A DNA stretch of 64,000 nt from a virus (lineage: Duplodnaviria; Heunggongvirae; Uroviricota; Caudoviricetes), in the IMG/VR virus record IMGVR_UViG_2795385955_000003, one strand, 5' to 3'. This document shows, one piece after another, positions 25,836 to 35,058 of this stretch. The notes under the pieces were generated by a model. It saw only the letters and a list, made by a program, of their open reading frames with translations, was not told the origin of the DNA and searched no databases. The first letter of the stretch is position 1. Every line of letters begins with the position of its first letter. A program made the position numbers and the translations under genes.

Positions 25836-26083
25836 TGTGCCCCTCCTTTCCGGTACTTGGTGGGCATGGCGTGGATACATACCCAGGTCCAGTCCTGGGT
25901 GGCGTGTGGGACCAGGATCAGCTCCAGCTCTACACCGGTGTCGTCGGTGCCTATGAAGTAGAGGCGCCAGATGCCGTCGCGGTTGTCGACGAGCAGCGGC
26001 ATACCGGCGTTGCGGAGTGCTGCCGTGACGCGGCGCTTGTTGGCGCGCATCCGCGCTTTCGCTGTGAGTGTCACTCTTGCCAT
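25832..26083 (-). CDS. small protein with weak BrnT/RelE-fold toxin-like C-terminal pattern
   Basis: WRLYFIGTDDTGVELELILVPH...WTWVCIHAMPTKYRK resembles DUF497/BrnT (F.IG..G.LL.VV...RIISARKAT). First gene of operon 11 bp from the palindromic operator. Confidence 0.35.
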   Translation of the reverse strand: MARVTLTAKARMRANKRRVTAALRNAGMPLLVDNRDGIWRLYFIGTDDTGVELELILVPHATQDWTWVCIHAMPTKYRKGGAQ

Positions 26084-32373: not shown

Positions 32374-32540
32374 CTCCGAGTTACGGTCTGGGGGATGAGG
32401 GTGCGACGCGTATCTGCCAGCTCTACCCCGCAACTACAAGATCCATCGTTTCAGCACGGCCGCGGCGCACCTTAATGCTGCATTAGAAGGTTTTCCACAC
32501 AGGGTTTCGTACCCGGTAGTAATGGTTTACGGTGTTTACT

Positions 32541-34013
32541 ATGTCGGACCAAGACCGCGACGAGCACCTCAAGTCAACCGCCATGTGGTGCCGCGACCTG
32601 CAATTCCCCGCCGGGGCTCGACGGGTGGAACCGAAGGCACCTGCAAGGCTACGGCGTGCGCTGATTGTGGTTGCTGTCGTTGCCGTCGCTTTTGGCGGCA
32701 CTAGAGTTATCGACGATCACATCCCGCCAGGCAGTGGGTTCTCCACCCTTGCCACCGTGGGAGCCGAGCCGACTGGGCCGCCCGGACCGACTGGTGGAAT
32801 GACTGACGGGGGTGGCTCTCAATTCCAGCCTCCAGGACAACCGCCGTCCATGCCGGACTACCAGGGCGGGAACAACTTACCGCCCCTAGATCAGAACTCA
32901 GGTATCTCAATTTACAATTCCGGCGCGCCACAGGCCGGGCAACAAGCTGGCGGGCAGCAAGGTGCACAGCAGCCGCAACAAGGTTGGGACCAACCGGCGC
33001 ACGGCACCCAGCCCCCTAACTACTCCACCGCACCCGGTTACACGCAGGGGCCAGGCAAGCCGAACCCTGATTATCAGGTGCCGCAACAGAATTCACCCCA
33101 GCAAGGTCAACAGTCGCCCCAGCAGGGGCAGCAGCAGCCGAGCCAGGCGCCCTCGCAGACCCAGCAACCCGAGCGGCCTGAGCAACAACAACAGCAGCAG
33201 GAAGACCAGTCCCAGCAGGATCAGGGAGACCAACAGCGCCAGCAGCGCTGCCAGGCGATGTCGCAGCAGATGGACCAGGTCACCCAGACCGCCGGACAAG
33301 TCGCTGACGTAGCTCAGCAGGTCGGAGATGCGGCCGAGATCGTGCTCCCCAAGGGAGGCGGTGGATCTCTAGGTCCCGACGGTGAGCGCTCTCCTGGCCG
33401 CTTACCTGTCGAGCCACTGGAGTGTGGGGATTGCCCACCTGATCGGCAGCCGCAGAATCCCCTCTGCAAAGCCATACCTAACGCCGCAGCCAAGCAAGTA
33501 TGCGAGGGCTTCATCGATGACTGGATGGAGAACTTTGAGGATAAATGCGAGGTTGGTAAGCCGAACTGCATGGGTAAGGTGGCTATCTGCCTGCCAAGGG
33601 ATATAGTCAACCCATCGGAATTCACCAAAAAGGGACTACAGGCATACATTGATGGCGGCAATGATCTAATAAAAAGAAATGAAAAGTTGGGCGGAATGGT
33701 GATTAAACGTTCAACTAAGGGCATGCAGGGCCGCAAAGATGCCGATAAGGACAGGGCGATACTTAGATATGGTGCCGACGCATTCAAGGATAAAGCTCCT
33801 GGGCATATTCCAGACCTTACGTGGATGGGCACCGAAGACGATGACCGCGACGTGATTCCTATGGACAAGAGCTTGAACTGGTCCATAGGTGGTCAATCGA
33901 ATCGCTTCAAGGAGAACTTCCAGGCCACAGAGTTCGTGCAAGGGTTCTGGCAGCAGGTGCCATGGTCAAAGACCACGCAGTGCCTCGCGAACGGGGTGGT
34001 GACAGGAGCGTGA
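32541..34013 (+). CDS. membrane-anchored protein with long P/Q/G-rich linker and low-GC C-terminal domain; polymorphic-toxin-like
   Basis: TM ALIVVAVVAVAF near N-terminus, ~250-aa Gln/Pro/Gly low-complexity region, Cys-containing C-terminal domain. GC drops to ~50% from ~33400 to the end of the gene. Confidence 0.5.
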   Translation: MSDQDRDEHLKSTAMWCRDLQFPAGARRVEPKAPARLRRALIVVAVVAVAFGGTRVIDDHIPPGSGFSTLATVGAEPTGPPGPTGGMTDGGGSQFQPPGQPPSMPDYQGGNNLPPLDQNSGISIYNSGAPQAGQQAGGQQGAQQPQQGWDQPAHGTQPPNYSTAPGYTQGPGKPNPDYQVPQQNSPQQGQQSPQQGQQQPSQAPSQTQQPERPEQQQQQQEDQSQQDQGDQQRQQRCQAMSQQMDQVTQTAGQVADVAQQVGDAAEIVLPKGGGGSLGPDGERSPGRLPVEPLECGDCPPDRQPQNPLCKAIPNAAAKQVCEGFIDDWMENFEDKCEVGKPNCMGKVAICLPRDIVNPSEFTKKGLQAYIDGGNDLIKRNEKLGGMVIKRSTKGMQGRKDADKDRAILRYGADAFKDKAPGHIPDLTWMGTEDDDRDVIPMDKSLNWSIGGQSNRFKENFQATEFVQGFWQQVPWSKTTQCLANGVVTGA

Positions 34014-34519
34014 TGACTTCCCTTCGAGACAGGGTCAGTCGACGCGGAATTGCAGTCGCGGTGGCCTGGGTCGCAACTATTGCAGTTGCCTCTCTGCTGA
34101 CATACGTTCTGTGCATGCAACATCCCAGCGACAAATCAGACAAGTATGACGCAGAGGTGCGCTCAGTAGTCGAGCAATATATTGATGCCCTGAACTCTGG
34201 CGACCTTAAGCAAATCGAATCTTTGTCAACTGGACTTGCAGAGGAAGAGCTTAATCCTCAAGCCAGGGCAGGCTACGTCCGCAAAATGGCGTACCAAATT
34301 GAGAAGCACGGCCCGATGCATATTCACGATTTCAGCATCCTTGCGCGAGGGGATCTGGTCTATGTTGCGTACGTCTACACGGAATACGAAGACCAAAAGA
34401 ATCCAAAGCCTGAGGATATCTATTTCTCTCCAGGGGCACGGGTTCGATACAACATGTACCGAACTGGCGGGAAGTGGAAAGTCATGAGCGTCGACCGATA
34501 CATCGGCGACGAGCGGTGA
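34013..34519 (+). CDS. low-GC membrane-anchored small protein, candidate immunity protein
   Basis: Start overlaps upstream stop (gtgATGa). N-terminal TM. Same low GC as the upstream C-terminal domain. Confidence 0.45.
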   Translation: MTSLRDRVSRRGIAVAVAWVATIAVASLLTYVLCMQHPSDKSDKYDAEVRSVVEQYIDALNSGDLKQIESLSTGLAEEELNPQARAGYVRKMAYQIEKHGPMHIHDFSILARGDLVYVAYVYTEYEDQKNPKPEDIYFSPGARVRYNMYRTGGKWKVMSVDRYIGDER

Positions 34520-35058
34520 GCAGACCAGCCGCCTTAACGGTGGGGTTCCTGACGGCCACGATGGCTCTGTTTGGGTGCCAAAGTCCTCCGCCTGCGGAGA
34601 CTGGACCGAATTACACACAGATCCCCGGACAGTTCCCTGACCCTGCAACCACAACCGCAGCAGGAGCAGAGGACGCCCCAGTGCGTGCATGCGTCAAGAT
34701 CACCGGCAAGCGCAACGATGCCGCCATGGTGCTCACCAAATGCGACTCTGGCGATGCCACGCATCGCATCGTGCAACGGGTCGTGGAGCCAAAGGACTGC
34801 GTGCGCGACGTCGACCGGCGCTACTACCGCAACACTGCCGCCGGTGAATGGACCGCATGCTTGGACCTGTACTGGACCAGCTCCAATTGCCTGAGCATCA
34901 CCAACGAAGCCACCCGCGCTGTGGCATGCGACGATGCGACCGCGCCACGTAGATTCCGTGCCACCAAACTCGTGCTCAACACCACCAAAGGCGACATGTG
35001 CACCGGATACGCGCACCCGGTGCGCCAGTTCACCATCTGCACGGAGATGCAGAAGTAG
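34516..35058 (+). CDS. Cys-rich lipoprotein
   Basis: GTG start overlapping prior stop. Signal plus lipobox LFGC. Multiple paired Cys. Confidence 0.5.
   Translation: MSRPAALTVGFLTATMALFGCQSPPPAETGPNYTQIPGQFPDPATTTAAGAEDAPVRACVKITGKRNDAAMVLTKCDSGDATHRIVQRVVEPKDCVRDVDRRYYRNTAAGEWTACLDLYWTSSNCLSITNEATRAVACDDATAPRRFRATKLVLNTTKGDMCTGYAHPVRQFTICTEMQK

Follow-up and report, generated by a model that had tools for sequence, protein, structure and literature searches.

The closest published concept to the locus described here is the Sec-dependent three-component S8-PTS, which is built from different components (PMC9424270). In that system a toxin composed of a signal peptide, a BetaH domain and a toxin domain is accompanied by an S8 peptidase and an immunity protein; it is found in Firmicutes and Actinobacteria and has been reported also in M. 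abscessus. In our study we analyzed three consecutive genes, A, B and C, in a 64,000-nucleotide stretch of the Caudoviricetes record IMGVR_UViG_2795385955_000003 of IMG/VR (the whole stretch is called the window). Based on sequence comparison we assign a probability of about 0.72 to the reading that these genes form a polymorphic toxin–immunity cassette which is carried by a prophage and whose family is specific to Mycobacteroides. Like S8-PTS, it would be a Sec-type polymorphic toxin system in which the toxin and immunity genes are joined by a conserved accessory gene. However, the accessory gene encodes an LppU-like lipoprotein instead of a subtilase, and the N-terminal module of the toxin is rich in proline, glutamine and glycine (P/Q/G), mostly non-globular and restricted to Mycobacteroides. 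Moreover, no peptidase was annotated within 6-12 kb of the cassette in four prophage loci.

For M. abscessus prophages, Dedrick et al. 2021 described only polymorphic toxins of the WXG100 type, located next to attachment junctions (PMC8092301). Such WXG100/ESX cassettes (PMC8092301; McProf, PMC8191103) occur in the same hosts and often in the same prophages as the family found in the window, and both have a conserved N-terminal trafficking part, variable C-termini and an adjacent co-varying immunity gene. The C-termini of the WXG100/ESX toxins include Ntox15, Endo-NS2 and Tox-REase-5, and some of these cassettes are expressed in lysogeny. They start with an N-terminal WXG100 domain, have a small WXG100 partner gene and lie next to attL or attR. 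In contrast, A carries a predicted hydrophobic export signal and the P/Q/G module but no WXG100 domain, and its cassette lies mid-genome and includes a probable membrane-anchored immunity protein and the conserved LppU-like lipoprotein. No WXG annotation was found among the genes flanking the cassette in prophiGD43A-5, T46-2 and T48-1, a result that refers to the annotation only and not to a hidden Markov model (HMM) scan of the neighbours.

The plan of a delivery part, a conserved pre-toxin boundary and swapped C-terminal nuclease domains with their immunity genes is also known from colicin-type bacteriocins and the contact-dependent inhibition proteins CdiA-CT/CdiI, which share the low-GC variable module with the cassette of the window. 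Unlike these, the cassette belongs to a mycomembrane envelope and has a membrane-anchored immunity protein, and there is no sequence relationship. We use the term polymorphic toxin system in the sense of Zhang et al. 2012 (PMC3482391); what was found here are alternative C-termini on a trafficking region, domain mobility and a co-varying downstream gene for the probable immunity protein. The kind of system is known as such. The N-terminal module appears to be undescribed in the literature searched; it occurs in a single genus, and neither Pfam nor NCBIfam nor the annotated PHROGs contain a model for it. In the same literature the LppU-like accessory, the membrane-anchored NTF2-like immunity protein and the unclassified toxin domain family appear undescribed as well.

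According to the open reading frame listing and translation, gene A, the putative polymorphic toxin gene, starts at 32532 (GTG, 493 amino acids) or 32541 (ATG, 490 amino acids) and ends at 34013 on the + strand. Gene B, which encodes the probable cognate immunity protein, extends from 34013 (ATG, 168 amino acids) or 34010 (GTG, 169 amino acids) to 34519, and gene C, encoding the LppU-like lipoprotein of 180 amino acids, from 34516 to 35058, both on the + strand. The stop codon of A (TGA, 34011-34013) overlaps the start of B, and the stop codon of B (34517-34519) overlaps the GTG start of C at 34516; because of these overlaps A, B and C look like one coupled operon. A preliminary description of this DNA had divided the 490-residue product of A into a short N-terminus, a transmembrane helix, a Q/P/G region and a Cys-containing C-terminal domain, followed by an overlapping gene for a membrane-anchored 168-residue protein and by a Cys-rich lipoprotein. 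Translation and hydropathy bear out the four parts, and the two downstream genes were found as B and C.

The cassette region is 97% identical over its full length to genes 62-65 of Mycobacterium phage prophiGD43A-5 (MW584167), all of which are annotated as 'hypothetical protein' in GenBank. This identity identifies the window as an M. abscessus prophage. The cassette lies ~32 kb into a 76.5-kb prophage. The homologue of A is prophiGD43A-5 gp63 (about 98-99% amino acid identity), and A matches phrog_30921, a family of unknown function, with E=2.6e-247. Diverged copies of the A-B-C unit were found in prophi79-1, prophiT46-2 and prophiT48-1/T36-1.

A shared N-terminal module and a variable block

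The protein encoded by A begins with a charged tail (residues 1-40). It is followed by an Arg-Arg pair and a hydrophobic segment (residues 41-58, RRALIVVAVVAVAFGGTR; 32652-32705, + strand), whose hydrophobic core comprises residues 43-57 with a maximum mean Kyte-Doolittle value of 2.03 at residue 43 (19-residue windows). An equivalent segment is present in all homologues and may act as a signal-anchor or as an export signal, either uncleaved or cleavable. Residues 59-236 consist of 25% Q, 16% P and 15% G, together 56%. The AT skew of the window reaches up to 0.68 in the Gln-rich part of A (33000-33300), presumably because of runs of CAG/CAA codons; this peculiarity of composition has no evident function of its own.

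Within this region, alignment, tblastn and a genome scan revealed a conserved P/Q/G-rich module (residues 66-184; 32727-33083, + strand), which we presume to serve in trafficking or delivery. Its motifs are PGSGFS…QFQPP.MP..MPDYQGGNN.PP[LM]DQNSGISIYN…QPAHGTQ.P.Y…YTQGPGKPNPDYQ, and 45 columns are invariant in an alignment of eight prophage proteins with different toxins. Thus, the earlier view of this part as a Q/P/G-rich stalk holds for its composition, but it is largely a conserved sequence module and not mere low complexity. A tblastn search with residues 1-270 of A found 24 M. abscessus/M. chelonae prophage records, which matched only residues 1-181. Furthermore, a scan of one genome per species found the module in 52 loci, most of them in chromosomal contigs; all belong to Mycobacteroides, with several copies (about 3 to 9) per genome.

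The C-termini attached to this module differ widely. When the last 300 residues of 47 family proteins from the genome loci were compared with Pfam, Tox-REase-5 (2 members), Tox-REase-7, Endonuclea_NS_2, GH-E and ADPrib_exo_Tox were found besides Amidase_2, Amidase_6, Glyco_hydro_19, Peptidase_M10 (3 members), Abhydrolase_8, Cutinase and Gly-zipper, as well as DUF6973 (3 members) and a calpain-like protease. Similar variation was seen in prophages. The protein gp80 of prophiGD12-2 ends in a metzincin motif (HEIGHALGLIH) and is followed by a lipoprotein annotated as a metalloproteinase inhibitor, glycine-zipper-like hydrophobic C-termini followed by small membrane proteins occur in prophi88-1, prophi91-1, prophiGD44-1/phiGD57-1 and McProf, and prophi68-1 has a 984-residue form of the family with a multi-transmembrane N-terminus. 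Altogether, at least 15 unrelated C-terminal domains that Pfam recognises, and many that it does not, are found on one and the same N-terminal module, so that the C-terminus is not conserved across homologues. A shared module with unrelated C-termini is the defining architecture of a polymorphic toxin family. A itself had neither a WXG100 domain nor any other significant Pfam match, and it was not recognised by Pfam, NCBIfam or PADLOC.

Module and toxin domain are connected by a pre-toxin junction (residues 237-305; 33240-33446, + strand), which consists of QQRC, an amphipathic stretch, LPKGGGGSLGPDGERSPGRLPVEPLE and C-G-D-C and is invariant in four alleles. In most toxins with a C-family gene downstream the junction takes the form QQxC, amphipathic stretch, GG[AG]G, P..[RK]..P and C-x(1,2)-C; the metallopeptidase-type members have neither this form nor a downstream C-family gene. 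Nine Cys residues follow the signal in A (240, 298, 301, 312, 324, 339, 346, 353 and 484); the preliminary description had already noted a Cys-containing C-terminal domain. Directly after the junction the DNA identity to prophiT48-1 collapses, and the junction is thus a conserved recombination boundary ahead of the variable domain. Speculatively, the Cys-bracketed flexible loop at the toxin boundary might be compared with the nicked, disulfide-held loops of AB toxins, which it resembles.

The variable part is also marked by its base composition. In 300-bp windows over the 64 kb the mean GC content was 0.647 (standard deviation 0.036), and the minimum of 0.473 lies about 4.8 standard deviations below it. 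Values below 0.54 were found only in windows starting at 33400-33700 and 34000-34250, a stretch of about 33400-34550. The GC content of third codon positions (GC3) falls to 0.45-0.60 in this block, and that of first and second positions (GC1, GC2) falls too. Since GC3 is affected, the dip is not merely an effect of amino acid composition. Gene C returns to a GC content of 0.62 (GC3 0.73), and the dip is present in all alleles. Accordingly, the GC drop that had been described within A from ~33400 onward and through B was recovered by the sliding-window calculation.

Compared with the prophiT48-1 allele, the DNA is 55-88% identical as far as 33431, 40-59% identical between 33432 and about 34631 and 66-74% identical beyond that, in agreement with the proposed replacement of the C-terminus at a conserved junction. 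As this collapse coincides with the dip, the variable block is the low-GC block (33432 to about 34600, + strand, GC 0.43-0.56). It spans the toxin domain and gene B as well as the part of gene C that encodes the signal peptide, and would represent a swappable toxin/immunity module. At the protein level the window and prophiGD43A-5 share 98% identity in the stalk, 99% in the toxin domain, 99% in B and 98% in C. The corresponding values are 88, 91, 93 and 81% for prophi79-1, 88, 71, 71 and 81% for prophiT46-2 and 85, 39, 42 and 67% for prophiT48-1.

The toxin domain, gene B and gene C

The C-terminal toxin domain (residues 297-493; 33420-34010, + strand) is a probable Mg-dependent nuclease of the HxxD or beta-beta-alpha type. 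A word-index protein search with this domain alone gave no match. An exhaustive HMMER search found 35 representative relatives and the profile search gave 117 matches, in all of which the domain is C-terminal. The carriers contain RHS repeats with an Rhs-associated core, DUF4280/IglG-like PAAR-type domains or PT-HINT, or are proteins in a WXG/LXG context, and some are named 'toxin YxiD' or 'RHS repeat-associated protein' by their sources. By homology it is a polymorphic-toxin domain, and it is mobile between trafficking modules. In three unrelated loci (Microbacterium, Asanoa and a metagenome contig) an SMI1_KNR4/SUKH gene lies directly 3' of the toxin domain, and WXG100_2 genes lie upstream of it in both actinobacterial loci. 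In these loci outside mycobacteria (L065:3001-4133, L066:3001-4169 and L067:3001-4506) the domain is short and stand-alone or WXG-associated, and the SUKH gene encodes ~182 residues. One toxin domain family is thus, as judged from the predicted partners, paired with two unrelated immunity folds according to the export route. The mycobacterial and some other actinobacterial versions have additional conserved Cys residues, which are missing from the RHS, PAAR and WXG versions; this would fit folding of the Cys-rich version outside the cytoplasm.

Ntox15 effectors are Mg-dependent DNases with an HxxD active site inside PD(X)3GG (PMC10470768, PMC13556189), and their fold is predominantly alpha-helical (PMC10470768). 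Like the domain of the window, Ntox15/Tde is a C-terminal toxin of polymorphic effectors, known from Agrobacterium Tde1, Bacteroidales and Bacillota (PMC4096383, PMC10470768, PMC13556189). In both, an invariant H-x-P-D precedes [LIV]-N-x-[SA]-[IL]-G by about 21-24 residues. In our domain the putative active-site signature (33801-33896, + strand) consists of G424-H425-I-P427-D428…W431 (33801-33815) and S-L-N449-W-S-I-G-G-Q (33870-33896). The family pattern is G-H-[VI]-P-D-x-x-W-x-G … [LM]-D-x-x-[LV]-N-x-S-[IL]-G-G-Q, and an alignment of 24 family sequences shows no variation at H, P, D, W, N and G. In H425-I-P-D428-L-T-W-M-G the H, P, D and W are invariant and the last G is nearly so; the first G of GG is not conserved. 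The motif reads PD-x3-x-G instead of PD(X)3GG. The AlphaFold2 model (54 homologues; pLDDT 74.9, pTM 0.67) is alpha/beta, whereas Ntox15 is described as predominantly helical. In the model H425 sits where a strand ends and N449 where the next helix begins. The partners also differ: Tdi for Ntox15, and NTF2-like or SUKH proteins for the family described here.

A four-sequence profile had no match in the PDB, and the best PDB match of the family profile was the Ntox15 chain 8fzz (E=0.21), with H-N-P-D…N-S-S-I-G-S-Q aligned. The two best Foldseek matches, both weak, were Ntox15 Tde1 and NucB. The latter (PDB 6ejs), a minimal nuclease of the beta-beta-alpha-metal (His-Me finger) type, is 9% identical to our domain without profile-level sequence similarity and is a free secreted enzyme, not a toxin module. 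In nucleases of this type the core is a hairpin plus helix, with the catalytic residue closing strand 1 and an Asn that binds metal. At E<=1 Pfam found no Ntox15 in the window protein or in 55 family members. As Pfam misses Ntox15 in McProf gp98 too, this negative is not very informative. An hhalign comparison of the family profile with the NucB sequence and with the McProf Tde-like toxin gave 3-column alignments only, and an hmmsearch of the profile against McProf gp98 was negative. We therefore claim a resemblance to Ntox15 and NucB and not homology. On these grounds we regard nucleic acid cleavage by an HxxD/Asn active site as the likeliest activity of the domain and as reasonably probable. 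The domain family is unclassified and possibly bridges Ntox15 and beta-beta-alpha-metal nucleases.

Gene B encodes a protein with an N-terminal transmembrane helix preceded by Arg residues, which predicts an N-in orientation with an extracytoplasmic domain. Weak family-model matches (DUF4440/SnoaL and the Rv0361 family) and close homologues named 'nuclear transport factor 2 family protein' by NCBI suggest, by weak lines only, that this domain is NTF2-like. In M. tuberculosis, Rv0361 was found with the membrane fraction as well as at the cell surface (PMC2891697). Among 49 complete toxins of the genome loci only 3 carry the toxin domain, and a B-family gene adjoins exactly those three; together with five of five prophage copies the two co-occur in 8/8 cases. 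Moreover, B diverges in step with the toxin domain (99/93/71/42% against 99/91/71/39% in GD43A-5/79-1/T46-2/T48-1). Because of this strict co-occurrence and co-divergence, B is the probable cognate immunity protein.

Gene 45 of prophiT48-1 (L003:7211-7762) is labelled 'oxidoreductase', a label that we reject since the product is a B homologue. An in-frame upstream extension of this gene gives MNGREKMPFSLNPARWSARSRRTLYVLLSILAVAAAVAV…, which restores the transmembrane helix, and its start was probably mis-called. In the McProf cassette gp50-gp48 (L005:4055-5658), gp50 has a glycine-zipper-like end behind the P/Q/G module, a small membrane protein is encoded by gp49, and gp48 matches the Rv0361-family NTF2 model above the cut-off (44 bits vs 37).

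The product of gene C has the lipobox L-F-G-C and eight further Cys residues. It scored 35.2 bits against the NCBIfam LppU/SCO3897 domain NF049863 (cut-off 25) and 79 bits against the LppU equivalog NF049864, below its cut-off of 135; it is hence a relative within the family but no LppU orthologue. Some 20 short-type toxins of many kinds have a C-family gene downstream, separated from them by room for one variable gene, and C is 67-98% identical across alleles in which the toxin domain and B are 39-99% identical. As C is conserved across many toxin types, it is more likely a conserved accessory of the family than a specific immunity protein. Of the downstream genes described as immunity-like, B therefore probably keeps this role, whereas the lipoprotein probably does not. 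The label 'lipoprotein LpqN' in prophiT48-1 and T46-2 (genes 46/48) was rejected, as the homologue in the window matches LppU/SCO3897 and no PDB chain.

Proposed action and rival explanations

In the proposed mechanism the hydrophobic N-terminal signal would insert A into the cytoplasmic membrane or direct its export across it, so that the P/Q/G module, the junction with its bracketing Cys residues and the toxin domain come to lie outside the cytoplasm. An oxidising compartment would fit both the nine Cys residues after the signal and the Cys-poor state of the domain on cytoplasmically made carriers. The toxin domain would most likely cleave nucleic acid by means of the invariant His-x-Pro-Asp and Asn. 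B, anchored in the membrane and facing the same compartment, would bind and neutralise its cognate toxin domain, as co-occurrence and co-divergence suggest, and C might serve the shared part of the system in maturation, anchoring, release or delivery. New toxin/immunity pairs would enter by recombinational exchange of the stretch from the conserved junction to the B/C boundary, which leaves the low-GC block. Such a cassette would let lysogens inhibit non-immune relatives in strain competition.

Swapped C-termini on a shared module, domain mobility, co-variation of B and the GC-marked block all support the polymorphic toxin reading that the preliminary description had put forward. Several observations weigh against it. 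No Pfam or NCBIfam model recognises the toxin domain, and the hydrophobic segment may be an anchor or a cleaved signal. Part of the parallel divergence of B and the toxin domain could stem from their physical linkage in a single recombination tract. A nuclease that has to act in the cytoplasm does not usually have its immunity protein outside, and the same domain is elsewhere paired with cytoplasmic SUKH proteins. In the McProf cassette an Rv0361-like NTF2 protein stands beside a different C-terminus, so that NTF2-like partners are not exclusive to the toxin of the window. Furthermore, Dedrick et al. reported that most of prophiGD43A-5 outside the WXG cassette is transcriptionally silent in the lysogen (PMC8092301). 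In favour of the reading, Cushman et al. found McProf gp48-50 to be moderately expressed in lysogeny and assigned no function to them (PMC8191103); by its sequence this is a homologous cassette.

The location of B bears on an alternative in which A is a polymorphic effector whose C-terminal domain is not a nuclease but acts on the cell wall or membrane, which would explain the extracytoplasmic immunity protein. Both B and the toxin domain are predicted outside the cytoplasm, other family members carry amidases, Glyco_hydro_19, cutinase and glycine zippers, and all nuclease similarities are weak. However, three independent searches all rank nucleases first, and H-x-P-D…N-x-S-I-G resembles the Ntox15 active site in both sequence and spacing (PMC13556189). 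In other taxa, moreover, the domain is paired with cytoplasmic SUKH proteins and with carriers of type VII and type VI secretion systems, as is usual for toxins acting in the cytoplasm. We consider an envelope-acting domain unlikely, although it is the strongest of the alternatives.

An anti-phage or superinfection-exclusion cassette, in which A, B and C would sit in the envelope and stop incoming phages or induce abortive infection, has a distinctly smaller chance of being correct. It would agree with the prophage location, with the independently oriented insertion between lytic operons in several prophages, with the predicted envelope-facing position of all three products and with the lysogenic expression of the McProf homologues (PMC8191103), which resembles that of many mycobacteriophage defence genes. 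Yet A, B and C had no PADLOC match, most of the 52 family loci were found in chromosomal contigs, which may include prophage regions, with several per genome, paralogues carry classic interbacterial toxin domains, and the same toxin domain occurs on RHS, PAAR-like and WXG-context carriers with SUKH immunity. Finally, A might be no toxin but a spanin-like structural or lysis protein of the envelope, with the GC dip caused by a composition rich in Lys, Asp, Asn and Ile. A transmembrane protein with a long periplasmic region beside a Cys-rich lipoprotein resembles the i-spanin/o-spanin layout, and GC1 and GC2 also fall in the block. We rejected this explanation as very unlikely, since GC3 falls too, the block is the allele-variable part, and paralogues carry recognised toxin domains. 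In addition, the domain occurs on RHS and PAAR carriers, and the prophiGD12-2 cassette adjoins separately annotated lysin A, lysin B and holin genes and is transcribed opposite to them.

M. abscessus is a pathogen that is difficult to treat, and an influence on strain competition and virulence is ascribed to its prophages. The proteins described here would form a second polymorphic toxin family beside ESX/WXG100 in these genomes, one that has been overlooked and is highly diversified: a genome has several copies, and at least 15 types of effector can be recognised. The family is limited to the M. abscessus–chelonae group and has been left 'hypothetical' in prophage annotations, several database annotations are corrected here, and gene B offers a predicted example of a membrane-anchored NTF2-like immunity protein. 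The genus-restricted module and the lipoprotein give a handle on how mycobacteria move large toxins across the outer membrane without a type VII signal. It is a tentative idea, and one that we hold to be doubtful at present, that the P/Q/G module, the Cys-bracketed junction and the LppU-like lipoprotein form an undescribed non-ESX route of toxin export or delivery across the mycomembrane. If true, prophages would carry extra toxin/immunity 'cartridges' that plug into a host-encoded apparatus.

Other family forms, upstream region and neighbouring genes

A long form of the family (about 970-1220 residues) has the P/Q/G module after a ~300-residue multi-transmembrane N-terminus and carries other C-termini. 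It comprises prophi68-1 gp40 (L011:1924-4878), L012 and the genome loci L022, L024-L026, L032, L033, L035, L037, L040, L041 and L044, and no LppU-like gene lies downstream. In prophi68-1 the toxin is followed by gp41 (117 residues), likely a cytoplasmic immunity protein.

Conserved neighbours at the genome loci are the LppU-like gene, a helix-turn-helix (HTH) protein, an MspA-like gene and a protein called X here. About 12 of the chromosomal Mycobacteroides loci have a gene for an MspA-like porin (Pfam MspA, E=5.7e-31) and the gene of X, a secreted Cys-rich protein of ~420 residues, directly before a family toxin gene (L027:1658-3819, also L045, L049, L053, L055, L056, L057 and L062). The arrangement is inverted in L030 and L051 and diverged in L058, L060, L063 and L064, and the position after the two genes is occupied by different toxins. 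Protein X had no family match, and neither gene was found in the window or in the prophage loci. The pair may be a lead to an export or delivery apparatus.

Upstream of A lies a gap of 158 bp (32374-32531, + strand), a possible promoter region. It had been described as AT-rich and ~170 bp long; the gap is real, but it is shorter and only mildly AT-rich (GC about 0.56 vs the window mean of 0.647), and a sigma-70-type scan found no promoter-like site on its + strand. A promoter/terminator scan found no terminator-like site either, and the gap aligns only patchily with other alleles. The 13-bp palindrome TAATGC-T-GCATTA (TAATGCTGCATTA) reported there exists, at 32473-32485 (without strand) and not, one base off, at 32474-32486. 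We rejected it as a regulatory element because the window contains 29 perfect 6-1-6 palindromes, this one included, and because it is not conserved between alleles, being disrupted in the 97%-identical prophiGD43A-5 and absent from the others; it is probably a chance feature. The 45-residue gene 62 of prophiGD43A-5 is not open at 32381-32518 of the window, where an in-frame stop follows after five codons, which suggests that it is not a real gene or that its frame was shifted by an indel.

Genes 49-50 of prophiGD43A-5 (L001:5251-5684; by offset about 25.6-26.1 kb in the window) are annotated as a BrnT-like toxin/antitoxin pair, which lies on the strand opposite to the cassette and ~6 kb upstream of it. 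BrnT pairs similarly sit just upstream of the cassette in prophiT48-1. A gene for a Ro-like RNA-binding protein is annotated farther downstream in prophiGD43A-5. The tRNA-Thr annotated in that prophage (record 26001-26079) was not called in the window by ARAGORN, which found only tRNA-Ser(GCT) and tRNA-Arg(ACG) at 1181-1393, near the left end, a region that is probably host flank or attachment region.

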